Below, in pieces: positions 1,659 to 13,957 of a stretch of DNA of 64,000 nucleotides (position 1 is its first letter; each line of letters begins with the position of its first letter). Source of the DNA: an uncultured Candidatus Saccharibacteria bacterium (lineage in GTDB: Bacteria > Patescibacteriota > Minisyncoccia > Phycocordibacterales > UBA9973). Position numbers and translations under genes: made by a program. Location of the stretch: NCBI GenBank assembly GCA_964474435.1, contig CAYYSI010000001.1, forward strand, positions 62,647-126,646, in the 5' to 3' direction. A model generated the notes under the pieces. The model made no database searches. It had not been told where the DNA came from and saw only the letters and a program-made list of their open reading frames with translations.

Positions 1659-2900
1659 ATGAATATCGCAGAAATAGCGACCTATGCTATCACCTTTTTA
1701 GCCCTGTATGTCCAGGTTTTTTTGTTTGTAACGTACCTCGAAAAGCGAAAGGCGCTCAAAAAAGAGGCGACTGACCCATTCATCCCAAGCCGGTACCCGA
1801 CCGTGGCTGTTGTGGTGCCATGTTGGAATGAAGGCACGACCGTGCATGGCACTATCGAGAGTCTCCTTGCGCTCGACTACCCAAAGGATAAGCTCCAGGT
1901 TATTGCTGTCGATGATGGAAGTACGGACAACACGTGGGATGAAATGCTCACCTACAAAGATCATCCGCAAGTCCAAATCCTCAAGAAAGAAAATGGCGGC
2001 AAGCACACCGCAGTAAACTACGGTATCGAAAATACGACGACTGAATTTGTCAGCTGTCTCGATGCTGACTCATTTGTCGCCCCGGACGCACTCAAACGTA
2101 TCATCACTATGTTTGAGAAAAATCCCGACATGATGGCAGTTGCACCATCGATCATTATCCATAGACCCAAGACCTTTATACAAAAAGTCCAAAAGGTCGA
2201 ATACAATATGGGTATCTATGTCAAAAAGATGCTTGCGTATCTCGGCGCGATTCACGTAACGCCTGGGCCATTTTCAGTATTTCGACGTGAAGTCTTTCAG
2301 AAGCTTGGAGGATTCCGCAAGGCGCACAATACCGAAGACATGGAGATCGCGTACCGCATGCAAGAAGCGCACATGCGCATCGGACATTGTCACACAGCGC
2401 ATATATTCACTGTTGCACCTTCGACTATTCCCAAACTTTTCAAGCAGCGCGTGCGATGGATTTATGGATTTATCCAAAATACACTCGACTACAAACGACT
2501 CGTCTTTCGTCGTTCATATGGCAATTTCTCCCTCTTTACACTGCCATCTGGTATCGTGTCGATCACTGCAACGGTTTATATTTTCTTTACCATTTTGTAC
2601 AACGTCATCGTCTGGATCGTCGAAAAGGTCGTGCAGTGGAGGACGGTTGGTTTGCATGGCAATGCCTTTGCTGTTAATCTAGATTGGTTCTATATCAATG
2701 TCCAAACGATTCTTTTTATCACCATTGCGCTCTACAGTATCATCGTCATCGCGACCATCCTTGGCAGCAAAATGGCGAAGGAAAACATGAATCCATTTTA
2801 TCTGGCGGCCTATGTAGTCACGTATAGTGTCATTGCGCCGTTTTGGCTCATGAAGGCAGTATGGAGCTCGCTCACGCGACACAAGCCAAGTTGGAGATAA
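1659..2900 (+). CDS. family-2 glycosyltransferase, processive (cellulose/chitin/PNAG-synthase-like), integral membrane
   Basis: GT2 motifs are present: VVVPCWNEG, DDGSTDNT, D-x-D (LDADS) and QRVRWIYG (the Q-x-x-RW motif of processive GT2s). It has N- and C-terminal TM helices. Confidence 0.8.
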   Translation: MNIAEIATYAITFLALYVQVFLFVTYLEKRKALKKEATDPFIPSRYPTVAVVVPCWNEGTTVHGTIESLLALDYPKDKLQVIAVDDGSTDNTWDEMLTYKDHPQVQILKKENGGKHTAVNYGIENTTTEFVSCLDADSFVAPDALKRIITMFEKNPDMMAVAPSIIIHRPKTFIQKVQKVEYNMGIYVKKMLAYLGAIHVTPGPFSVFRREVFQKLGGFRKAHNTEDMEIAYRMQEAHMRIGHCHTAHIFTVAPSTIPKLFKQRVRWIYGFIQNTLDYKRLVFRRSYGNFSLFTLPSGIVSITATVYIFFTILYNVIVWIVEKVVQWRTVGLHGNAFAVNLDWFYINVQTILFITIALYSIIVIATILGSKMAKENMNPFYLAAYVVTYSVIAPFWLMKAVWSSLTRHKPSWR

Positions 2901-2907
2901 ACTCAGT

Positions 2908-3552
2908 ATGAAACATTCCACCAAATACATTCTTGCACTCATTTGTACTCTCGCGATCTTTGTAGTTGCGTGGTATACAAGTGACGCGCTCAACAAGAAA
3001 AAGTTTGCCGACCTCAAAGCGGCCCAAGACAAAATCTCGATCGACATTCTTTCATCAGAAACAGAATTTGACCTCCTCAAAGAAAGCACGTGTGACAACA
3101 GCGCAGCTTCAGTCTTTTCGCATGACCTCGCAACACTTGCCGACAAGATCAGCTACAGCGAACAAAACGTTGCAACCCCCGAAGAAATCAACAGCCTCAA
3201 AAAACAATACACCCTCCTTGAAGTCCGAGACTTTTTATTGACCAAGCGTGTGAGTGAGCGATGCAACCAAACACCTGTGAGTATCTTTTATTTCTACGGT
3301 ACCCAAGTCGGCTGTGCGGACTGTGTCAAACAAGGCTACATCCTCGACGCACTTCGCCAGGCACATCCAGAGGTGCGCGTGTATGCATTCGACTACAACC
3401 TCGATCTCTCGACCATCAAGGCACTGCGATCTATTTATAAAATAAGTGACAAACTCCCCGCACTCGTCATCAACGGCACGACATACCAAGGATTCCAGAC
3501 ATTTGATCAGTTGGAGGCATTGATTCCAAAGCAGGGAACTAAAGGCAAATAA
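2908..3552 (+). CDS. membrane-anchored thioredoxin-fold protein with CxxC (CADC)
   Basis: An N-terminal TM helix is followed by a C-terminal region with CADC and ...PALVINGTTYQGF..., resembling a DsbA/thioredoxin-like fold. The function is inferred only. Confidence 0.45.
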   Translation: MKHSTKYILALICTLAIFVVAWYTSDALNKKKFADLKAAQDKISIDILSSETEFDLLKESTCDNSAASVFSHDLATLADKISYSEQNVATPEEINSLKKQYTLLEVRDFLLTKRVSERCNQTPVSIFYFYGTQVGCADCVKQGYILDALRQAHPEVRVYAFDYNLDLSTIKALRSIYKISDKLPALVINGTTYQGFQTFDQLEALIPKQGTKGK

Positions 3553-3694
3553 AAAAACCGTCTCCAAAAAAGGCGACGGCTCCGGAGGCCTTTCAATCAA
3601 CCGTAAACGATGTATTTAAAGGCCTCCTTAAAACCAAAACTTGCGTTCTCCTCACATCATACAAAACGTCCAAATACTGTCAAATAGGGGATAC

Positions 3695-3723
3695 TTGACA
3701 ATTTACTTTACATGTGCTAAAGT
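3695..3723 (+). promoter_or_regulatory. sigma-70-like promoter TTGACA-17-TAAAGT
   Basis: TTGACA at 3695-3700, a 17-nt spacer, then TAAAGT at 3718-3723. No long ORF follows before the terminator at 3865. Confidence 0.5.
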
Positions 3724-3894
3724 GTTATTGGTCTTGTTTGTGTCGGAAACCTCAAGAAAAAAACAGGCCCCCTTCACAATTTCTTAATTTGCCGTTATTA
3801 ACCTGGCAAAAACATCAATACCTATTAAATTCTGCGTTTTCACAGTTCCCCTCAACAAATTCTTCACCCCTGACTTGGTCAGGGGCTTTTTTAT
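3724..3894 (+). ncRNA. candidate ~165-nt sRNA or terminator-containing 5' leader upstream of the zinc-ribbon gene
   Basis: The region is bounded by the promoter at 3695-3723 and a strong intrinsic terminator at 3865-3894. It has no credible ORF and contains an internal hairpin, TTGCC-N10-GGCAA. Confidence 0.3.
3865..3894 (+). terminator. rho-independent terminator CCCCTGAC-ttg-GTCAGGGG followed by T6
   Basis: An 8-bp GC-rich stem is followed by CTTTTTTATT. It lies 34 nt upstream of the ATG at 3928. Confidence 0.8.
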
Positions 3895-3927
3895 TGCTAT
3901 TTCTGCCAAAAAGTATAGAGTTCGGGT

Positions 3928-4518
3928 ATGAAAAACTTTACCGGTGGTGATCGACGAGAAGGAGGGTTCCGAGGAGGTGATCGTGGTGGCAAACCGGGCT
4001 TCAAGAAGTCATGGGACAACAAAGGTGGCTTTGATCGCCCACAAGTGATGCACAAGGCAACCTGCAGTGAATGCGGCAAGCAGTGCGAAGTCCCATTTCG
4101 TCCGGACGGGTCCAAACCTATCTTTTGTAACGACTGCTTTAACAAAAAGCGCGACCCATCCGACACTCGCGGTTCTCGATCTGACTTTGCTCCCAAGCGA
4201 GACTTCAACGACCGTTTCGCTCCTCGTGCCGAATCTCGTGACTTCCGCTCCGATGCTCGCCCTGCATTCAAATCCACTCCCGACAACACCGGCAAACAAC
4301 TCTCCGAGATCTCAATGAAACTCGATCGACTTATTGCTGCAATGGAAAAGATGACCGCACCAGCATCTGCACCAAAGGCGGCAAAAGAAATCCCCGACCT
4401 GCCTGCGCAGCCAGGATCTGCGCTCATCAAAGTATCAAAGCCAAAGGCTGAGAAGAAAGCTGTTAAGAAAAAGGTGGTTGCGAAAAAGAAGAAATCGCTT
4501 TTAATAAGTAGTTCATGA
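3928..4518 (+). CDS. CxxC-x17-CxxC zinc-ribbon protein with RGG-rich N-terminus and Lys-rich C-terminal tail (putative nucleic-acid binding)
   Basis: CSEC-(17 residues)-CNDC fits the CxxC-x17-CxxC zinc-ribbon pattern exactly. The N-terminus has GGDRREGGFRGGDRGG repeats, and the C-terminus is KAEKKAVKKKVVAKKKK. Confidence 0.6.
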   Translation: MKNFTGGDRREGGFRGGDRGGKPGFKKSWDNKGGFDRPQVMHKATCSECGKQCEVPFRPDGSKPIFCNDCFNKKRDPSDTRGSRSDFAPKRDFNDRFAPRAESRDFRSDARPAFKSTPDNTGKQLSEISMKLDRLIAAMEKMTAPASAPKAAKEIPDLPAQPGSALIKVSKPKAEKKAVKKKVVAKKKKSLLISSS

Positions 4519-4546
4519 ATTAAATATTAAGTGATTAACTTTTAAT

Positions 4547-4575
4547 TTGACTTAAAATAATTATAGGTATATAGT
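4547..4575 (+). promoter_or_regulatory. promoter TTGACT-17-TATATAGT immediately upstream of the Fic / Type I R-M operon (leaderless-type)
   Basis: TTGACT at 4547-4552 and TATAGT at 4570-4575; ATG at 4582, leaving only 6 nt between the -10 and the start codon. Confidence 0.5.
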
Positions 4576-4581
4576 CTTTCT

Positions 4582-5715
4582 ATGGCTAAATACAAGTCAG
4601 GTATCTATAAGCAAAAGGAAGGTTATAAAAGCTTTTATCCATCCCAGGTAAATGGGGTATTTGAATGGACAGATAAGCGTATTGACGTGCTTCTTGCTGA
4701 TGCAATGCGATATCTTGGCGAGCTTAACGCATTTTCAAAATTGGTCCCTGATGTGGACTTTTTCATACAGATGCATATTGCAAAGGAAGCTACGACTTCG
4801 AGCAAGATAGAGGGCACGCAAACAAAACTTGATGAGGCACTTTTACCAGAGCTCGAAATTGACCCAGAAAAAAGAAATGACTGGGAAGAAGTTCAAAATT
4901 ATGTAAAAGCAATCAATTACTCCATTGCAGAGCTCAAAAAGCTTCCGCTCTCGATGCGGCTTGTAAAAGATACGCACAAAGTCCTCCTTTCAAGTGTGCG
5001 AGGATATACGAAACTACCCGGAGAGGTTCGCCGAAGTCAAAACTGGATTGGGGGCGCAACGCTCAGAGATGCAGTATTTATTCCTCCGCATCATGAAGAA
5101 GTGGCTGAGCTACTGAGTGATCTTGAGAAATTTTGGCACAATAAAGAAATTGATATTCCTGACTTGATCAAAATCGCGATTTCTCATTATCAATTTGAAA
5201 CGATCCACCCATTTCTCGATGGAAATGGCCGTATTGGTAGATTATTGATCACACTTCATCTCGTAAGTTTGGGAATTCTACAGAAACCTACACTCTATAT
5301 CTCTGACTTTTTTGAAAAACATCGCCCGCAATACTACGATGGTCTTTCGCGTGTCCGAGAAACAAATGATATCGAGCATTGGCTCCGTTTCTTTTTGACC
5401 GGAGTATTGGAAACTGCAAAAAATTCACGAGAAACATTGGAGAAAATCATCGACCTGCGCAAGAAATATGAAACTACTATCGAAAAAGGTATGGGTATCA
5501 AACGTCAAAAGCTGGGCAAAGAACTCTTGCGCCATCTTTTCTCCAAACCGATAGTGACGATCAGAGAAATAGAAGCAATGCTTTCTGTAACATTTCCCAC
5601 TGCCTCGGCAATCGCAAAAGACTTTGAAAGTTTGGGATTGTTTTCTGAAAAGACTGGGCTCAAAAAGGATCGAATCTTTTATTTAACAGACTATATCAAT
5701 CTCTTCAACAAATAA
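4582..5715 (+). CDS. Fic-family protein (AMPylator-type) with intact HPFx(D/E)GNGR motif and N-terminal inhibitory (S/T)xxxE(G/N) motif
   Basis: [12 protein letters not shown] is the canonical Fic active-site motif. TSSKIEGT fits the class-II inhibitory-helix motif. The gene is tightly linked to hsdM, with a 1-nt gap. Confidence 0.85.
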
Positions 5716-5716
5716 T

Positions 5717-7480
5717 ATGGAAAATTTAACTCAAAAAACTGCAATGGTCGCAATGATCTGGAACATAGCTGACATTCTCCGTGGAGGGTGGAAGCAGCAC
5801 GAGTACCAGGATGTCATACTTCCACTTGTTGTATTGAAGCGATTGGACGCTATTCTTGCCGATACAAAGGCAAATGTGTTGGAGAAAAATAATGAATATA
5901 AAGGAAAGATTAATGATCTTGATCCCATTCTCAAGAGAACAGCTAGGGCGCCTTTCTACAATACTTCGGAGTATGACTTCACAAACCTTTTGGGTGACCC
6001 GAAACATCTCGCAAAGAACTTCAAACGGTACATCAATGGATACAGCAAGAACATACAAGACATATTCGAAAAATTTGATTTCAATAAACAGCTCGAGCGT
6101 CTCGAAGGTGGTGATCTTTTGTTCTATGTTATCCAAGAGTTAAATAAAGTAGATCTGCACTCATCAAAGATAGACAATCATGAGATGGGACGCATATTCG
6201 AAGAACTTCTCCGTAAGTTTTCTGAAATGTCCAACGAAACTGCTGGAGAACACTACACGCCTCGCGATGTGATTAGTACGATGGTGGAGATCCTCCTTGC
6301 GCCTGATGCAAAGGATCTCAAGAAACCTCATGTTATCAAGAAAATATACGACCCTGCCTGTGGTACGGGTGGTATGCTTTCTGTTGCCAAAGATTACATT
6401 CTCGAACATATAAATCCAAAAGCAGATATCTTCCTCTATGGCCAAGAACTCAACTCGGTGACGTACGCGATGGCCAAGTCCGATATGTTGATCAAGGGGG
6501 ATGACCCTGACCTGATCCGCGGAGGAGAAAAAGACCATTCCAGGGCCAGTACGCTCGCTAATGATCAGTTTTTTGGGGAAGTATTCGACTACGGACTTTC
6601 AAACCCTCCATACGGTGTGGACTGGAAAAAAGACAAAGATGTGGTCGAACGTGAAGCGTCTCGCGGATACGCCGGGCGATTTGGTGCAGGTACCCCACGT
6701 ATCTCGGATGGACAACTGCTTTTCCTTCAGCATCTCGTCTCAAAAATGAAGCCAGAAGCCGATGGCGGCTCACGTCTTGCCATTGTCCACAACGGCTCAC
6801 CATTATTTACCGGCGATGCCGGGAGTGGTGAGAGTGAAATCCGTCGCTGGATCCTCGAGAAAGATCTGCTGGAGACGATTGTGGCATTACCTGACCAGCT
6901 CTTCTACAACACAGGGATCAACACCTATTTGTGGTACATCACCAACCGAAAGTCCAAAGAACGCAAAGGCAAGGTACAACTGATCGACGCGCGTGGATTC
7001 TTCAAGAAAACTCGCAAGAGTTTGGGTAGTAAACGTCAAGAAATCGACCCAGACTCAAAGAAAAAGATACGTGATCTCTATACCAACTTCGAAGAAAATG
7101 AACATTCAAAAATCTTTAAGACGACTGACTTTGCATACCGCCAGATTCAAGTCGAGCGTCCACTGATGGTAGATGGCAAAGTCTCAAAAAATAAAAAAGG
7201 AGAAATCGAGATAGATAAATCTCTTCGCGACTATGAAAACGTGCCATGGGGAACTGATGTCAATGAATACTTTGAGAAAGAAGTAAAACCCTATGTGCCT
7301 GATGCATGGATCAATACGTCAGTTGTCGATCACAAGGATGGTAAGGTAGGAGTGGTAGGATATGAAATTCCTTTTACTCGGTACTTCTACAAATACGAAG
7401 CACCGCGAAGTCTGGAGGCTATTGAGGGTAATATTGAAAAGGTTGAAAATGAATTATTGGAGCTTTTGAAGCAGTTGTAA
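5717..7480 (+). CDS. hsdM: Type I restriction-modification system, N6-adenine DNA methyltransferase subunit
   Basis: It carries the SAM motif DPACGTGGML and the catalytic LSNPPYG (NPPY). The 587-aa size is typical of HsdM. Confidence 0.9.
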   Translation: MENLTQKTAMVAMIWNIADILRGGWKQHEYQDVILPLVVLKRLDAILADTKANVLEKNNEYKGKINDLDPILKRTARAPFYNTSEYDFTNLLGDPKHLAKNFKRYINGYSKNIQDIFEKFDFNKQLERLEGGDLLFYVIQELNKVDLHSSKIDNHEMGRIFEELLRKFSEMSNETAGEHYTPRDVISTMVEILLAPDAKDLKKPHVIKKIYDPACGTGGMLSVAKDYILEHINPKADIFLYGQELNSVTYAMAKSDMLIKGDDPDLIRGGEKDHSRASTLANDQFFGEVFDYGLSNPPYGVDWKKDKDVVEREASRGYAGRFGAGTPRISDGQLLFLQHLVSKMKPEADGGSRLAIVHNGSPLFTGDAGSGESEIRRWILEKDLLETIVALPDQLFYNTGINTYLWYITNRKSKERKGKVQLIDARGFFKKTRKSLGSKRQEIDPDSKKKIRDLYTNFEENEHSKIFKTTDFAYRQIQVERPLMVDGKVSKNKKGEIEIDKSLRDYENVPWGTDVNEYFEKEVKPYVPDAWINTSVVDHKDGKVGVVGYEIPFTRYFYKYEAPRSLEAIEGNIEKVENELLELLKQL

Positions 7481-7484
7481 TCTT

Positions 7485-8189
7485 ATGTGCTACCATCATT
7501 TGCCCATAATTCTTATAGAAGGATCAGCAAGAGAGGGCTCACAATTTTGGGGTGCATTTTGGGGTGCGTTCTTAGCATTTATCTTTGGATTGATCGCTTA
7601 CCGGATTACTAAACGATGGGAGCGTTTCCTTCTTCATAAAAATTCATTGGCTAAAATGGAACGGGTTTTAAATAATCATTTGAATGAACTTGGTTTTATG
7701 GAATTTATTGTTAAGGATGCAAGAAAAAATTTAACAGAACGTAAGCTTACACCTGATAGAATATTGAAATTTGATATTCCGGAAGGGGTTGATATGGAAT
7801 TTGGTAGTCTGAGATTAGTAAATGATTTCATGGACTACAGAGCTACTGTTATTCGTTTTAACTATAACTCAAGATCACTAAATCATGTACTAGATCGATT
7901 TGATGAAATGTTACTAACAAACCCTACTCTTATTGCAGGTAATGCATCGTATGCAATAGAGATGCTTCAAAAATTTGAAGAAGACATACCAAAAGTTATT
8001 GAAAGCTTTAAGGAATTTCTAATGACTATTAGAATCTATATCCATAAAACCAGACAGGTAGAAAGCTTTTTCTATGGTGTTTCAAAAAATATATGGGAAT
8101 TTCAAATTACTGAAGAAGAATTAAAAAAGGAAAAGGAAAAATTTGAAACAGAAGTAAAAATGTTGCGCGAGAAAAGAGAGAAAAAATAA
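7485..8189 (+). CDS. hypothetical membrane-anchored protein embedded between hsdM and hsdS (orfX)
   Basis: ATG lies 5 nt after the hsdM stop, and the gene ends 2 nt before the hsdS start. One N-terminal TM helix (GAFWGAFLAFIFGLIAY) is followed by a predicted cytoplasmic region with a KE-rich coiled-coil tail. No motif was recognised. Confidence 0.5.
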   Translation: MCYHHLPIILIEGSAREGSQFWGAFWGAFLAFIFGLIAYRITKRWERFLLHKNSLAKMERVLNNHLNELGFMEFIVKDARKNLTERKLTPDRILKFDIPEGVDMEFGSLRLVNDFMDYRATVIRFNYNSRSLNHVLDRFDEMLLTNPTLIAGNASYAIEMLQKFEEDIPKVIESFKEFLMTIRIYIHKTRQVESFFYGVSKNIWEFQITEEELKKEKEKFETEVKMLREKREKK

Positions 8190-8190
8190 T

Positions 8191-9489
8191 ATGCAAACAC
8201 TCAGACTAACAAAAAAATACAAAACCTATCCTGAATATAAAGATTCTGGAGTTGAGTGGCTAGGAAAGATTCCTAAAGAGTGGGAATCTCAAAAAATTGT
8301 ATCTGTGTTTGATTTTCCAAATCAGAAAGTTACAGAAACAACTCATGAGCCACTATCTGTCACATATGACGGCATAAAAAGACAGATTGAAAACGCTGCA
8401 AAAGTTGCAGAAGGTAGTCTTAGAAAACATGTAGAAATAGGAGATATAGTCATCAACGGACGCTCTGATAGAAAAGGCGCAGTAGGTATGTCTGAATATG
8501 ATGGGGGCGTGTCTCTTGTATACAATGTACTAAGGAAACGAAACAAAGAATTTGATTCAAAGTATTTCCATTACCTTTTCAGAAGTAAACTATTCTCAGA
8601 GGAGTTTTATCGCTGGGGGCGAGGTATCGTTGATGATCTTTGGACTACTCGCGAAAGCGAAATGAAGAGAATTTTTATTACTGTCCCGGAAATGACAGAT
8701 CAAACAAAAATCGCAAAATATCTCGACGAAAAAACATCACTTATTGACCAAACCATCTCAAAAAAACAAAAACTGATCGAGCTGCTGCGCGAGAAGCGGA
8801 TGGCGGTAATTAATCAGGCAGTGACAGAAGGTTTAAATCCGGATACTGAGATGATGGAGAGTGGTGTAGAGTGGATTGAGAAGATTCCTAAGGTGTGGAA
8901 GGTTCTACCTTTGAAGTATAATATTGAAATTCAAGAAGGGCCTGGAATCATGGCTGAGGATTTTAAAGAAATTGGAGTTCCTTTATTGAGAATTAAAAAT
9001 CTTAAAAACGGTTTTGTTGACCTGGAAGGTTCTAATTTCCTTGATCCTAAAAAAGTTCAAAGTAAATGGAATCATTTTAAATTACAACAAGGCGATCTGC
9101 TGATCAGCGGAAGTGCGTCTTCCGGCATAGTATCTGAAGTTACAGAAGAAGCTGTTGGTGCGATTGCATATACTGGACTAATTAGAATTTCTTCAAAAAC
9201 TCTACACAAACAATTTTTAAAAAATCTTCTAGATTCAAAATACTTTAACGAGCAAGTTGAGATACAAAAAGCGGGAACTGCAATGCAGCATTATGGACCT
9301 ACTCACCTAAAGAAAGTTGTTATCACTATTCCCTCATATGATGAACAAAAGAAGATTGCTTATTATCTTGATAAAAAGGTATCAGTTTTTAATGAAACCA
9401 TAGAGGTAATTGAGCAATCTGTTGAGTTATTACAAGAATTTAAATCGTCGCTCATTTCGAATGTGGTGACGGGAAAGGTTAAGGCATGA
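8191..9489 (+). CDS. hsdS: Type I restriction-modification system, specificity subunit (two target-recognition domains)
   Basis: The conserved repeat helices are duplicated (LDEKTSLIDQTISKKQKLIELLREKRMAV... and LDKKVSVFNETIEVIEQSVELLQEFKSSLI...), consistent with a tandem TRD architecture of 432 aa. Confidence 0.85.
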   Translation: MQTLRLTKKYKTYPEYKDSGVEWLGKIPKEWESQKIVSVFDFPNQKVTETTHEPLSVTYDGIKRQIENAAKVAEGSLRKHVEIGDIVINGRSDRKGAVGMSEYDGGVSLVYNVLRKRNKEFDSKYFHYLFRSKLFSEEFYRWGRGIVDDLWTTRESEMKRIFITVPEMTDQTKIAKYLDEKTSLIDQTISKKQKLIELLREKRMAVINQAVTEGLNPDTEMMESGVEWIEKIPKVWKVLPLKYNIEIQEGPGIMAEDFKEIGVPLLRIKNLKNGFVDLEGSNFLDPKKVQSKWNHFKLQQGDLLISGSASSGIVSEVTEEAVGAIAYTGLIRISSKTLHKQFLKNLLDSKYFNEQVEIQKAGTAMQHYGPTHLKKVVITIPSYDEQKKIAYYLDKKVSVFNETIEVIEQSVELLQEFKSSLISNVVTGKVKA

Positions 9490-10052
9490 TTAAAGAAGAA
9501 TTAATAGAATATAAACTTGATAATCTTCCTTATAGCTTTAGAAAATGGAGATATCTTGCAACATATAGAAATCAATGGGATTTTTTACCAAAAACTCTTA
9601 AAGATAGAATCGCTGAGCAGTTAATGACTGCAGATTATATAGTTACGTTAGATGAATGGTTAAAACCTGCTATTACAATAAAAGAAAGGCAAAGAGTTTT
9701 ATTGTTACAGATACTTGCATCTATTTATGAAGGCGTTTTAACTTATTTGGTTTCGGAAAAAATTAAAATTGATATTTCGGATAATAAGGCATTGAAAACA
9801 ATTTATGATAAATCAACTTTTTATGGAGAAAAAAGAACATTTAGGCCAACTTTACAATTAGCTTTTGATATGGGATTGGTTAGTGAATCTTGGAATTCAA
9901 AACTAGATAAGGTAGTTGAAATAAGAAATTGGGTTCATTTGTCAAATTCAGAAAAACCAGATATTTTACATTGGATTATGAATCGTACTTGTGAAGAACA
10001 CAGAAAAGAATTAGATTTATTTCGAGAATATATAAAAATAAAATTCGATTAA
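9486..10052 (+). CDS. hypothetical protein embedded between hsdS and hsdR (orfY); possible HEPN/Abi-like accessory
   Basis: The start overlaps the hsdS stop as ATGA. It is 188 aa and very AT-rich, with no ATPase motif. It contains R-x3-H (EIRNWVHLS), which only loosely resembles a HEPN Rx4-6H motif. It occupies the slot where PrrC-like anticodon nucleases sit in other Type I loci. Confidence 0.45.
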   Translation: MIKEELIEYKLDNLPYSFRKWRYLATYRNQWDFLPKTLKDRIAEQLMTADYIVTLDEWLKPAITIKERQRVLLLQILASIYEGVLTYLVSEKIKIDISDNKALKTIYDKSTFYGEKRTFRPTLQLAFDMGLVSESWNSKLDKVVEIRNWVHLSNSEKPDILHWIMNRTCEEHRKELDLFREYIKIKFD

Positions 10053-10053
10053 T

Positions 10054-13017
10054 ATGACCACAAAAACTAACACAAAAGAATCAGGCTTTGAGGAATTCAT
10101 CGAGCAAGAGCTCGTGAGTCTCCATGGCTACCAGTCACGCCCGGCAAGTGTGTATGACAAGAAACTCTGTATGGATACTGAGCTGGTGTTGTCATTTGTG
10201 CGAAGTACTCAGCCAGATGTGTGGGCACAGCTCGAGGAGCAGCTCGGTGAAGAAACAGAGTCGAAGTTTTTGGCACGACTTGATGAAGAAATCACTTCAC
10301 GAGGGTTGCTGTCAGTGCTACGCGAAGGAATCACTGATCGTGGGGTGCGATTTCGGCTCGCCTTTTGGAAACCACAGAATGACATGAACCCAGAAACTAT
10401 TGCGGATTATGCGGGCAATATATTGAGTGTTATACGTCAGGTCAAATATAGTGAAAAGAATGAGAACTCCATTGATATGGTGCTCTTTGTGAATGGGCTG
10501 CCAATATTTACTGTCGAACTCAAAAATCAGTTTACAGGGCAAAACGTCATTAATGCCATCCAGCAGTACAAAACTGATCGCGATCAGAAGGAGAAGTTAT
10601 TGTCGTTCAAACGCTGCTTGACTCACTTTGCTGCAGATACAGACCAGGCGTATATGACGACCAGGTTGTCGGGGCTAACGACCTATTTCTTGCCATTCAA
10701 TAAGGGTGACAAAGGTTCTGCAGGTAATCCAGTAGCACCAAAAGGAAAGTATAAAACGTACTATCTCTGGGAAGAAGTATGGGCAAAGGATAGTATGTTT
10801 GATTTGCTTGGGAATTTCATACAGGAAGTTGTAGAAGAAAAAGAAGACAAAAACGGGCGACGTCGTCGTGATGAGAAGCTGATCTTCCCTCGGTATCATC
10901 AGCTCGATACGGTGCGACGAATTGTGCAGGACGCACGAGAATATGGATCGGGTAAAAATTATTTGATTCAGCATAGTGCAGGGTCTGGTAAAAGTAACAC
11001 GATCGCATGGGTAGCGCATCGGCTCGCAGAGCTGCACACTACACAAAACCACAATGTGTTTGATGGTGTCATCGTGATTACTGATCGACGCGTATTGGAT
11101 CGCCAATTGTCAGAGACGGTGAAGAGCTTCAGTCAGACGACGGGATTAGTAAAACATGTGGAATCATCCGCTGATTTGCGGGAAGCGCTGGAAGGTGGAG
11201 TAAAGATTATTACGAGTACGCTGCAAAAATTCCCAGTGATCGTGGAAACGATTGAAAAAACGGCAGGCAAGCGATTTGCAATTATCGTAGACGAAGCACA
11301 TTCATCACAGTCGGGTGAAAGTGCGGCTGATTTGCGACAGGCACTGACGTTGGATGAGGCAACACAACAAGAAGAAAAAGAAGAGAAGCTGTTCAAGACA
11401 GTAGAAGATCAGCTCATAGAACGCATGAAGGCGCGAAAGGTTTCGTCTCCAAACTTGAGCTTCTTCGCATTCACTGCAACACCAAAACAAAAGACACTTG
11501 AATTATTTGGAACAGAGGATCTGGTATCAGGGAAATTTAATCCGTTCTCACTATACTCAATGAAGCAGGCAATTGAAGAGAAATTCATTTTGGATGTATT
11601 GAAAAACTACACGATGTACGAGACGTATTTTGGCCTATTGAAAAAGGTAGAAGATGATCCAGAATTTGATAAGAAAAAGGCACAACGACTGATGGTGGGC
11701 TATGTAGAGCGACATGAGCATGTGATCGATAAAAAGGTCGCGATAATGGTCGAGCATTTTGAAGAAAAGATTGCACGGTTGATTGATGGAAAGGCGAAAG
11801 CTATAGTGGTCACCAAATCACGCCTCCATGCAGTACGGTACAAAATCGCATTTGACAAATATCTCAAAGAAAAGGGGTATAAGCACAAATCATTAGTGGC
11901 TTTTTCTGGCACCGTTAAAGATGGTGATACAGAAGTTACTGAGGGACAGATGAATAAAGTCCCAGAAAGTCAGACCGCAGAAGAGTTCAAGAAAGATGAC
12001 TATAAATTTCTCATTGTGGCTGAAAAGTTTCAAACAGGCTTTGATCAGCCGTTGTTGTCAGTCATGTATGTTGATAAAAAATTGGGAGGAGTAAATGCGG
12101 TACAGACCCTTTCACGATTGAATCGCACGACATATGACAAGGATGAAACATTTGTGCTCGATTTCGTCAACGAGACTGACGATATTAAGGAGGCATTTCA
12201 GCCCTACTATACAACGACGATTTTGTCAGAAGCGACCAACCCAAATATTTTGCATGATCTGGAGCGTGATGTGCGAAACTTTAAATTCTTTAGCGATTTT
12301 GAAATCAATGGATTTGTAGAGGAGTATTTTGGAGGTGCGACGCCTGATAAACTCAACCATATCATTGATGGAGTTGTTGCCCGTATTCAAAATGAAAATC
12401 TCACTCAAGAAGAGATAGAAGGATTTAAATCAACTGGAAGTGATTATCTGCGAAAATATTCATTTATATCTCAAATTGTAACATTCGAAGACCCACAGCT
12501 TGAAAAGTTATATATTTTCTTGAAATTCTTGATAAAGAAGTTACCCAAATACCCTGATCCGTTGCCGTACGAAGTATTGGAAGCAGTTGATATGGAAAGT
12601 TATAAAATTGAGAAAAAAGTTGAGACAAACATTGCACTTGAAAACAAAGATGGTGAAATCGATCCAATGAGTGGAAGTGGTGATCGCAAGGGTGGTAGTG
12701 AGGAAGAGCTCGATATGCTTTCAAAAATTATTAAGGAAATAAATGAGCGCTATGGCACCAATTTCTCCGATACAGATCGAGTTATCTTGAATGATTTGAG
12801 TTTGCGACTTCTCAAAAATGAAATCTTACAGGGTTCAGTCAAAAACAATAGTAAAGATGCTGCAAAATTGAAGTTTGATCAAATGTTCCAAGACGAGCTC
12901 GTCGGCGTACTTGATAATCATTTCAGTCTTTATCAGAAATTGGATCAGAGTCCAGAACTCAAGAAGTTTGTGCAAGAAAAAGTGTTTGAGTACGTTATAA
13001 GGAAAATGGATAAATAA
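10054..13017 (+). CDS. hsdR: Type I restriction enzyme, restriction (helicase-nuclease) subunit
   Basis: An N-terminal PD-(D/E)xK nuclease motif (DMVLFVNGLPIFTVELK) is followed by Walker A QHSAGSGKSNT and a DEAH box (IIVDEAHSS). The protein is 987 aa. Confidence 0.9.
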   Translation: MTTKTNTKESGFEEFIEQELVSLHGYQSRPASVYDKKLCMDTELVLSFVRSTQPDVWAQLEEQLGEETESKFLARLDEEITSRGLLSVLREGITDRGVRFRLAFWKPQNDMNPETIADYAGNILSVIRQVKYSEKNENSIDMVLFVNGLPIFTVELKNQFTGQNVINAIQQYKTDRDQKEKLLSFKRCLTHFAADTDQAYMTTRLSGLTTYFLPFNKGDKGSAGNPVAPKGKYKTYYLWEEVWAKDSMFDLLGNFIQEVVEEKEDKNGRRRRDEKLIFPRYHQLDTVRRIVQDAREYGSGKNYLIQHSAGSGKSNTIAWVAHRLAELHTTQNHNVFDGVIVITDRRVLDRQLSETVKSFSQTTGLVKHVESSADLREALEGGVKIITSTLQKFPVIVETIEKTAGKRFAIIVDEAHSSQSGESAADLRQALTLDEATQQEEKEEKLFKTVEDQLIERMKARKVSSPNLSFFAFTATPKQKTLELFGTEDLVSGKFNPFSLYSMKQAIEEKFILDVLKNYTMYETYFGLLKKVEDDPEFDKKKAQRLMVGYVERHEHVIDKKVAIMVEHFEEKIARLIDGKAKAIVVTKSRLHAVRYKIAFDKYLKEKGYKHKSLVAFSGTVKDGDTEVTEGQMNKVPESQTAEEFKKDDYKFLIVAEKFQTGFDQPLLSVMYVDKKLGGVNAVQTLSRLNRTTYDKDETFVLDFVNETDDIKEAFQPYYTTTILSEATNPNILHDLERDVRNFKFFSDFEINGFVEEYFGGATPDKLNHIIDGVVARIQNENLTQEEIEGFKSTGSDYLRKYSFISQIVTFEDPQLEKLYIFLKFLIKKLPKYPDPLPYEVLEAVDMESYKIEKKVETNIALENKDGEIDPMSGSGDRKGGSEEELDMLSKIIKEINERYGTNFSDTDRVILNDLSLRLLKNEILQGSVKNNSKDAAKLKFDQMFQDELVGVLDNHFSLYQKLDQSPELKKFVQEKVFEYVIRKMDK

Positions 13018-13469
13018 TGAAAAAAGAAAGAACGATTATAACCGAAGATTTTGTACAACGAAGCGTTATTAGGTATCTCGAAAAGAACGGCTGGAGCAAA
13101 TCATTGAAAAGTGCTGAACTGTGGGAACAGGGAGTAGATATTAAGGTTTGTAATAACAAGTTCTCACGATATTGGCTTATTGAAGCAAAAGCCGATCCTT
13201 CAATTACAGTAAAGAGTCCTACAGGCAGTATGAGTAGTAGTTTCAATTCTGCTTTGGGTCAAATAATAACGAGGATGCACACAAAAGGTGCTAGAGGATA
13301 TAAATATCGTTATAAATATGGCATAGCTTTCCCTGTGTCATTTAAGAAAATGGTTTTGAGAAAAATTCCGTATGACGTAATGGATAAACTGAATCTTTAT
13401 TTGTTTTTCGTTAATGAAATTGGGAATATTGAGGTGTATGATTGGCGTATTGTAAGAAAATTAAAATAA
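13017..13469 (+). CDS. stand-alone PD-(D/E)xK nuclease-fold protein (HsdR-N / Mrr-like), translationally coupled to hsdR (orfZ)
   Basis: The start overlaps the hsdR stop (TAATG). The motif GVDIKV...WLIEAKAD fits a D...(D/E)xK restriction-endonuclease-like core. The protein is 150 aa. Confidence 0.5.
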   Translation: MKKERTIITEDFVQRSVIRYLEKNGWSKSLKSAELWEQGVDIKVCNNKFSRYWLIEAKADPSITVKSPTGSMSSSFNSALGQIITRMHTKGARGYKYRYKYGIAFPVSFKKMVLRKIPYDVMDKLNLYLFFVNEIGNIEVYDWRIVRKLK

Positions 13470-13957
13470 TTATGCCCCTCCATCCCGAAACAACTATTGG
13501 ACACATTCATCTCACTGTCAGCGACCTTGAGCGAGCACTTGGATTTTATCGTGACTTGCTGGGGTTTGAAGTCACGGCGAAGTATGGAGATCATGCAGTA
13601 TTTCTTTCGGCGGGAGGGTACCATCACCACATAGGGCTCAATACATGGGCAGGGAAAGGGGTGACACCGCCACCAGAGGGGCACACGGGGCTGTATCATG
13701 CAGCAATATTGTTTCCGAGCCGCAAGGCATTGGCAACAGTGCTCAAGCATCTCATGGACAACGGATACCCAATCGATGGGGCGTCTGATCATGGAGTATC
13801 AGAGGCGATATATTTGCATGATCCAGACCGAAATGGTATCGAGCTCTACTGTGACCGCCCAAAGGAAACGTGGAAGGTAAATAATGACGGACTTGTTGAG
13901 ATGGATACCAAGCCGCTCGATATCGATGACTTGCTCGCCCAGGCAGATATAGACTGA
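13442..13957 (+). CDS. VOC-family protein (glyoxalase / bleomycin-resistance / extradiol-dioxygenase fold)
   Basis: IGHIHLTVSDLERALGFYRDLLGFEV...GYHHHIGLNTW is a typical VOC/glyoxalase-I-like signature. Confidence 0.75.
   Translation: MAYCKKIKIIMPLHPETTIGHIHLTVSDLERALGFYRDLLGFEVTAKYGDHAVFLSAGGYHHHIGLNTWAGKGVTPPPEGHTGLYHAAILFPSRKALATVLKHLMDNGYPIDGASDHGVSEAIYLHDPDRNGIELYCDRPKETWKVNNDGLVEMDTKPLDIDDLLAQADID

Follow-up and report, generated by a model that had tools for sequence, protein, structure and literature searches.

Gene organisation of the orfX locus

Genes embedded in multi-gene defence systems form a recognised class, and seven defence systems predicted on the principle of 'guilt by embedding' were later verified by experiment (Payne et al., 2024, bioRxiv 10.1101/2024.01.29.577857). 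Here, we describe orfX, a membrane-protein gene lying inside a Type I restriction-modification (R-M) operon on a 64,000-nucleotide stretch of contig CAYYSI010000001.1 from an uncultured Candidatus Saccharibacteria bacterium; the whole of this stretch is referred to as the window. Cargo in Type I R-M operons was already known. The orfX family itself is new and unannotated, and its architecture is unlike that of the known membrane effectors.

The operon occupies positions 4582-13469 of the forward strand and consists of seven co-directional genes with spacers of -4 to +4 nt (Table 1). The gap between fic and hsdM is 1 nt, the spacer between hsdM and orfX is 4 nt (tctt, 7481-7484) and that between orfX and hsdS is 1 nt (t, 8190). 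An earlier sequence-only reading of the window had placed an open reading frame (ORF) of 234 aa at 7485-8189 between hsdM and hsdS, which stands; its spacers of 5 and 2 nt do not, and are replaced by the values above, a trivial correction. A terminator-like hairpin at 3867-3885 closes the gene preceding fic, and no convincing terminator was found inside the seven-gene operon. The window carries one copy of orfX, and two more assemblies, made independently from other sequencing runs, contain the identical locus.

Table 1. Genes of the operon and segments of the orfX product, in window coordinates
Feature	Position	Strand	Description
Promoter-like site	4547..4575	+	Sigma-70-like TTGACT-17-TATAGT, 10/12 match, weak evidence; just 5' of fic
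fic	4582..5715	+	SoFic-type Fic/DOC, first operon gene; Pfam Fic_N 5e-25, Fic 2e-17; PADLOC SoFic 4e-116
hsdM	5717..7480	+	HsdM_N 6e-25, N6_Mtase 5e-59; PADLOC MTase_I 3e-246
orfX	7485..8189	+	ATG start, 234 aa; membrane-anchored, predicted all-helical protein of an unnamed family
orfX, N-terminal tail	7485..7544 (residues 1-20)	+	Short, disordered, His/Tyr-rich, predicted extracytoplasmic
orfX, transmembrane helix	7545..7601 (residues 21-39)	+	Ridge G23xxxG27xxxA31xxxG35; repeat GAF-x-GAF-x-AF-x-F
orfX, helical bundle	7608..8084 (residues 42-200)	+	K/R cluster TKRWERF..HKN, then predicted cytoplasmic antiparallel bundle
orfX, terminal helix	8112..8183 (residues 210-233)	+	Glu/Lys-rich; conserved E216 and E223, 7 residues apart
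hsdS	8191..9489	+	Methylase_S 5e-13; PADLOC Specificity_I 1e-111
orf188	9486..10052	+	188 aa, HEPN-like, second embedded cargo gene
hsdR	10054..13017	+	Restriction/translocase subunit; Pfam and PADLOC
orf150	13017..13469	+	150 aa, PD-(D/E)xK-like, terminal cargo gene

Conservation of orfX

The word-indexed search returned 18 close homologues of orfX with 37-69% identity and near-identical length. A HMMER profile of orfX was compared with 1.84 billion cluster representatives and gave 477, 235 and 40 matches at E <= 1e-3, 1e-10 and 1e-30, respectively. The matches were almost all 220-285 aa long and aligned end to end; the representatives stand for clusters at 50% identity, and the family therefore comprises at least 477 such clusters. 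All of its sources are metagenomes or metagenome-assembled genomes (MAGs), the named ones being Paceibacterota, Saccharibacteria and Peribacteria, together with one MAG labelled Chlamydiae. Between the window and the syntenic orthologue in locus L005, non-synonymous divergence (pN) was 0.21 and synonymous divergence (pS) was 0.77, and the start position was conserved across the alignment of close homologues. This demonstrates that orfX is a real gene under purifying selection.

A spurious ORF in the hsdM-hsdS spacer could be suspected from the low guanine-plus-cytosine (GC) content of orfX (32.5%) and from the lack of an obvious Shine-Dalgarno sequence upstream of it. Against this stand hundreds of full-length homologues, a pN far under pS, the conserved start and a confident AlphaFold2 (AF2) fold, calculated from the 18-sequence alignment, with a mean predicted local distance difference test score (pLDDT) of 83.5 and a predicted TM-score (pTM) of 0.73. 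Because of the homologue and selection data, this explanation is effectively refuted and is given next to no probability. The homologues, pN << pS and the transmembrane (TM) segment described below bear out the earlier proposal that orfX is a genuine gene, nested in a Type I R-M operon, for a protein that crosses the membrane once: orfX has relatives, its statistics are not those of non-coding DNA and its relatives carry no annotation as housekeeping proteins, in contrast to the three outcomes that the proposal had listed as contrary to it.

Architecture and predicted topology of the orfX product

The Kyte-Doolittle 19-residue hydropathy of orfX peaked at 1.76 over residues 21-39 (FWGAFWGAFLAFIFGLIAY), the sole segment exceeding 1.0. 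This segment was invariant or nearly so in the 18 homologues, in agreement with the single N-terminal TM helix proposed earlier, and no other part of the family is as strongly conserved as the TM helix. Residues F21, W22, G23, F25, G27, A28, F29, A31, F32, F34 and G35 were invariant in the close set, and the core GAF-x-GA-x-x-AF-x-F was kept at 80-90% or more among 51 diverse members. Residues G23, G27, A31 and G35 share one helical face, forming a ridge of the GxxxG or glycine-zipper type. Such ridges mediate tight helix-helix packing in other membrane proteins.

In a comparison of 157 members of the family, the 15 residues after the TM helix contained a median of four Lys and Arg residues, against one before the helix. 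A single TM helix was carried by 103 of the 157 members, while a subfamily of 270-285 aa has an extra N-terminal TM helix with Lys/Arg ahead of it. Given this bias and the layout of the two-TM subfamily, the C-terminal domain is predicted to be cytoplasmic, and by the positive-inside rule the protein would be bitopic with an N-out/C-in orientation. In the close subfamily, the N-terminal tail follows a MYxHHxxH-like consensus that is not present in the wider family. A signal-peptide or lipoprotein reading was dropped, as neither a lipobox nor a cleavage site was seen by eye.

In the AF2 model, residues 1-16 are disordered (pLDDT <50) and helices span residues 16-84 (the TM helix running on into the cytoplasm), 109-145, 147-191, 194-200 and 210-233. 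Of the 35 residues at the C-terminus, 10 are Glu and 9 are Lys, which matches the Lys/Glu-rich C-terminus noted earlier; judged from the model, the term 'coiled coil' over-simplifies this part of the protein, which is better called a bundle of helices that ends in a charged one. The greater part of the chain, residues 42-200, is modelled as an intramolecular antiparallel bundle and not as one long coiled coil. Polar residues conserved across the family are R47, H51, N63, N113, N126, N153, R183, E216 and E223. No catalytic signature was recognised among the conserved residues, and the polar pattern would fit inter-helix contacts or a small binding site.

Searches against known families and folds

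The orfX sequence gave nothing above noise against Pfam, NCBIfam, PHROGs and PADLOC. Its best PHROG match, a virion structural coiled coil, had an E-value of 0.016, and none fell under 0.01, holin and exclusion families included. When the 51 diverse members were compared with Pfam and PADLOC, only scattered coiled-coil noise was obtained, PADLOC v2 giving four single matches to unrelated coiled-coil proteins at E 0.004-0.01; the SLATT_1-6 and PycTM models of Pfam had no match among these members, and the single TM helix of most family members differs from the 2-TM core typical of SLATT. A sequence-profile search of the PDB with orfX also returned generic coiled-coil noise only, and the Foldseek matches to orfX were of a generic long-helix kind, namely axonemal filament proteins, tape-measure proteins and designed bundles. 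The earlier statement that no known motif was recognised holds, and orfX belongs to no known family, with no match above noise in the sequence libraries, the PDB or BFVD.

Searches directed at particular relationships were likewise negative. As an HsdM, HsdS or HsdR subunit, orfX had no Pfam or PADLOC match, while its neighbours matched strongly. A HEPN RNase reading was rejected: the Rx4-6H motif is lacking, the juxtamembrane R47-x3-H51 is the one Arg/His pair that is conserved, and no HEPN structure occurred among the fold matches. Alignment of the orfX family with hhalign against the PycTM-like protein of locus L034 gave a probability of 0.2 (unrelated), and against a neighbouring DUF4760-like protein it showed no relation. 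With tblastn, no relative was found in 50,697 INPHARED phage records or in the PLSDB plasmids, and a pattern scan of IMG/VR found none.

Genomic contexts of the orfX family

A total of 24 non-redundant contexts, including the window, was examined; the sample is biased to relatives that can be retrieved by word or pattern searches, and close-alignment scans gave 7 + 11 loci. Two operational features of the embedded class of Payne et al. (2024) are seen in orfX. One is co-directional nesting among the Type I core genes, which in the window has the order M-X-S-orf188-R (M, S and R being the hsd genes and X being orfX). The other is recurrence, the homologues being re-embedded on four backbones and present as solo copies in at least nine long contexts.

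Of the 24 contexts, seven are placed within Type I R-M operons, and these operons represent four unrelated backbones. The search for homologues in other genomes, which the sequence-only reading had named as a check, thus finds them again between Type I core genes. By taking hsdM and hsdS to be adjacent in almost all cases, that reading makes the arrangement look rarer than it is, as genes embedded in Type I R-M operons are documented and common. The window, L005 and L013 share the order Fic-M-X-S-cargo-R, with orf188, SduA_C or an AAA_15/21 ATPase as the cargo. The order is M-NYN-S-X-DUF3800-R in L006, GmrSD_N-M-277aa-S-X-SMODS/AGS_C-SLATT_4-R in L007, M-X-... in L028 and M-three ORFs-X-probable HsdS in L025. 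In six of these seven contexts orfX directly abuts hsdS, standing 5' of it in the window, L005, L013 and L025 and 3' of it in L006 and L007. The L007 operon (2615-13680) has four extra modules: it carries GmrSD_N upstream and an unassigned 277-aa ORF between hsdM and hsdS, and in it the orfX homologue is followed by a pair consisting of an SMODS/AGS_C nucleotidyltransferase and a SLATT_4 membrane effector, placed before hsdR. Known defence modules co-embedded with orfX thus include SoFic, SduA_C, the AAA_15/21 ATPase, NYN, DUF3800, SMODS with SLATT, and GmrSD. The L009 copy stands outside a Type I R-M operon, 2 kb downstream of it.

Outside such operons, three islands are bounded by large serine recombinases (L001, L017 and L019), and several carry Xre regulators; the islands with orfX homologues span 2878-11088 in L001, 5503-14899 in L017 and 13384-16269 in L019. 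The longest-ORF frame of 961 aa in L019 combines a recombinase-like N-terminal part with a complete MnmA-like tRNA methyltransferase, which may reflect two adjacent genes or an insertion into mnmA. A HinP1I-type R-M system, Vsr, PDDEXK_3 and a PycTM-like gene occur near the homologue in L034, an Mrr_cat neighbour in L035 and a SocA_Panacea neighbour in L011. A second membrane-protein family was seen within ~1 kb of distant orfX homologues at two unrelated loci (L034 7137-7808 and L022 11646-12230); it has a weak PycTM match in L034 and is unrelated to orfX by hhalign.

No Type I R-M genes were found in at least nine contexts covering several kb on both sides (L001, L011, L015, L017, L019, L020, L021, L022 and L034), and the orfX family is accordingly not tied to R-M loci. 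In about eight contexts, the neighbours are housekeeping genes or lack annotation. When all neighbours were compared with one another, no conserved partner gene emerged, and a profile search of the fetched loci revealed no orfX paralogue among neighbouring genes; orfX therefore appears to act alone or with host factors.

Mobility of orfX between backbones

The similarity of orfX was compared with that of the operons that host it. Across the four orfX-hosting backbones, HsdM is 29-45% identical. Between the window and L006, orfX is 66% identical while HsdM and HsdR are 29% and 28% identical, and the insertion position differs; between the window and L013, orfX is 40% identical while HsdM and HsdR are 84% and 81% identical. 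The orfX genes of L009 and L001 are 90% identical; the L009 copy neighbours a Type I R-M operon, and the L001 copy belongs to a serine-recombinase island. Since orfX similarity is decoupled from backbone similarity, orfX behaves as a mobile stand-alone cassette.

Base composition was also uneven along the operon. The GC content is 32.5% in orfX, 36.6% in hsdS, 27.0% in orf188 and 34.0% in orf150, compared with 42-44% in hsdM and hsdR and 45% in the window. Sharp GC troughs at 7001-10000 and 12001-13000 lie over the cargo genes and suggest cassette acquisition between conserved core genes. Given the decoupling and the foreign composition, the hsdM-hsdR segment behaves as an exchangeable cassette site, with orfX as one recurrent cassette. 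The descriptive claims made so far on orfX, taken as a whole, are held with near certainty.

Other genes of the operon

The Fic-HsdM arrangement of the window recurs in L005 and L013 at ~80% identity. In hsdS, a 37-nt direct repeat with 78% identity was found at 8247-8283 and 8862-8898, 615 nt apart, which we take to be the duplicated conserved region preceding each target-recognition domain. The orf188 gene overlaps hsdS by 4 nt and has eight homologues with an invariant EIRNWVHLxN motif. In its AF2 model (pLDDT 79.9), HEPN toxins (HepT/SO_3166) made up 14 of the first 16 Foldseek PDB matches, with probabilities of 0.75-0.99 and target TM-scores of 0.54-0.65, but with weak E-values (0.27-1.2); the spacing from Arg to His is Rx3H, compared with the canonical Rx4-6H. 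Judged by this model, orf188 probably encodes a HEPN-like RNase and would be the second effector embedded in the operon. The orf150 gene overlaps the hsdR stop by 1 nt and shows a D41...E56-A-K58 motif that was read by eye as PD-(D/E)xK-like; it had no Pfam, NCBIfam or PHROG match and only a PADLOC PDC-M02B match at E ~0.02.

Comparison with known systems

The embedding screen that introduced this class of genes covered RefSeq genomes; it placed HEC and PDC candidates in Type I R-M, BREX, DISARM and Hma loci, described PrrC as almost exclusively embedded in Type I R-M and argued that most embedded genes are neither mobilome nor housekeeping (bioRxiv 10.1101/2024.01.29.577857). TgvAB, inside the Type I R-M operon of VPI-2 in Vibrio cholerae, has an experimentally proven defence function (PMC11411939), and the rlo genes of Campylobacter jejuni are given there as an embedded example (Miller et al., 2005, cited in PMC11411939). 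orfX resembles the embedded candidates in that it is co-directional among Type I core genes, occurs both repeatedly embedded and solo, and has other modules alongside. It differs from them in that no PADLOC v2 model, PDC and HEC models included, matches the 51 members beyond noise, in that the family was found in metagenomes and MAGs only, and in its characteristic place between hsdM and hsdS or against hsdS.

The PrrC and RloC anticodon nucleases are likewise single accessory genes in Type I operons with a possible role as restriction back-up; orfX, in contrast, lacks an ATPase or nuclease domain and the HEPN Rx4-6H motif, is membrane-anchored and often has no R-M neighbour. Small TM proteins of defence islands, such as SLATT, the Pycsar effector PycTM, CBASS two-TM and Cap15-type proteins, RexB and AbiZ, offer another comparison. 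With these membrane-disrupting effectors of abortive infection (Abi), orfX shares a TM helix suited to self-association, and depolarisation is a plausible output. However, it shows no sequence or profile similarity to them (SLATT and PycTM models), it combines one TM helix with a bundle of ~190 residues, and no cognate signal-producing enzyme is conserved beside it.

The superinfection-exclusion proteins of temperate phages, such as lactococcal Sie2009 and HK97 gp15, are also short bitopic membrane proteins carried as cargo of integrative elements, but orfX has no homology to them, is not in the phage collections and has a large domain predicted to be cytoplasmic. Finally, the membrane-proximal four-helix-bundle sensor and transducer modules of the Tar, NarQ and HAMP type, which were among the weak matches to orfX, resemble it in having a TM helix continuous with a long antiparallel bundle; these matches do not rise above noise (E 0.07-0.9, TM-score <= 0.38), and orfX has no second TM helix, periplasmic domain, kinase or methyl-accepting chemotaxis protein output.

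Proposed function and alternative explanations

A role of some kind in defence is somewhat more likely than not for orfX. The more specific reading, which we favour tentatively and at a little short of an even chance, is that of an accessory, R-M-independent, Abi-like membrane protein directed against phages or other mobile genetic elements (MGEs), as suggested by context and architecture. orfX would be a horizontally mobile accessory gene that has entered a Type I R-M operon in its variable central part, beside hsdS. Its product would be a bitopic inner-membrane protein with a short external tail, one TM helix, a cytoplasmic bundle of ~190 residues and a charged end helix. The bundle may serve as a sensor or latch; on triggering, the TM helices would pack through their small-residue faces into an oligomer, and this oligomer would depolarise or permeabilise the membrane, leading to abortive infection. 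A one-protein sensor-effector is thought likeliest because the protein has a conserved TM helix of the self-association type and a cytoplasmic helical domain, with no enzymatic motif or partner. Both the oligomerisation of the TM helices and the membrane damage are steps that we infer.

Several points weigh against a defence function of this kind. The library matches were all below the curated cut-off or had E >= 0.004 and were not common between members, and Foldseek gave no match in the PDB and BFVD with E <0.03 or with a TM-score >0.38 (PDB) or >0.40 (BFVD). orfX has no homology to any proven effector, and its role in defence is argued from context and architecture. The contexts come from ~24 loci, a sample skewed to close relatives, and around one third of them (e.g., L015, L021, L032 and L038) have no recognisable defence or mobility gene nearby; a 'defence island' is also not properly scorable, because many neighbours are unannotated. 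Given that no catalytic motif is present, the conserved Asn, Arg and Glu residues could be purely structural, and glycine-zipper-like TM helices are also present in non-lytic membrane proteins.

Among the alternatives, the one to be reckoned with most is that orfX has no defence role and is a lineage-specific membrane protein, active in envelope stress, division, MGE maintenance or another process, that hitch-hikes in variable regions. We regard this as doubtful. It would suit the tRNA_bind gene adjoining orfX in L011, L015 and L017, the aminoacyl-tRNA synthetases in L021, the DUF347, ice-binding-like protein and sortase neighbours in L032, the share of uninformative contexts (about a third), the lack of an enzymatic motif and the breadth of the family at 477 clusters. 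Chance, however, hardly explains embedding on four independent backbones in a defence operon whose genes are co-directional and translationally coupled: by an order-of-magnitude estimate, assumed and not computed, the hsdM-hsdR interval holds less than 0.5% of a small genome's genes, against seven of 24 contexts here. Moreover, the rapid turnover of orfX alleles on a conserved backbone (40% vs 84% identity) is typical of arms-race genes. An entry-blocking or superinfection-exclusion protein, which would hinder phage DNA injection or DNA uptake by pilus or competence without killing, is distinctly unlikely. The small, single-pass form of orfX, its carriage in serine-recombinase islands with an Xre regulator, ParB_N, a Dam-like methylase and an Sf6-terminase-small-subunit-like gene, and the conserved His/Tyr-rich external tail of the close subfamily would agree with such a role. 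Yet INPHARED, PLSDB and IMG/VR hold no relative, BFVD gave no fold match and no PHROG match reached E <0.01, and the bulk of the protein is predicted to be cytoplasmic, with only ~20 poorly conserved residues facing outward. The absence from phage collections is itself weak evidence, because few phages of such uncultured lineages have been sampled.

We also consider it unlikely that orfX is an accessory factor of the Type I R-M enzyme itself. As a membrane tether, orfX would place the M2S or R2M2S complex at the site where DNA enters, and EcoKI is reportedly membrane-associated; as a guard, it would be kept latent by the R-M complex and fire when an anti-restriction protein disables that complex, for which PrrC provides an R-M-embedded precedent. 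The translational coupling of orfX between hsdM and hsdS, its contact with hsdS in six of the seven embedded contexts and its fast evolution, like that of hsdS, while hsdM and hsdR hold ~80% identity, all speak for this. What counts against it is the set of at least nine long contexts without hsdM, hsdS or hsdR, and the 90%-identical pair of which one member neighbours a Type I operon and the other lies in a recombinase island. A specific partnership is also improbable across four backbones whose HsdM proteins are 29-45% identical, and adjacency to hsdS is equally expected if the hsdM-hsdR segment is a recombination-prone cassette site. A bolder proposal, which we consider very unlikely, is that orfX represents a new single-gene membrane effector class of ultra-small uncultured bacteria of the Candidate Phyla Radiation (CPR)/Patescibacteria type, wired to Type I restriction. 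In that case, the conserved helices of HsdS, or else the M2S complex, would provide a docking site for the bundle, and phage anti-restriction proteins that disable or displace the enzyme would free orfX to form a glycine-zipper oligomer and collapse the membrane potential; orfX would then be a membrane-based analogue of the PrrC guard, and the solo copies would guard other systems.

Significance of the orfX family

The placement of orfX beside hsdS on unrelated backbones points either to the hsdM-hsdR interval as a hotspot of cassette exchange or to a functional link between the cargo and the specificity subunit. The finding would be of smaller value without a defence role for orfX, amounting to a family of unknown function and a caution for guilt by embedding. 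With 234 aa and one TM helix, orfX offers a compact test case for a minimal sensor-effector that would couple a cytoplasmic signal to the membrane. The named sources of the family are MAGs of Patescibacteria/CPR, and the prior embedding screen used RefSeq genomes. If orfX is a defence gene, a widespread family of at least 477 clusters, with no detectable relative among known effectors, would be added to the prokaryotic immune repertoire.

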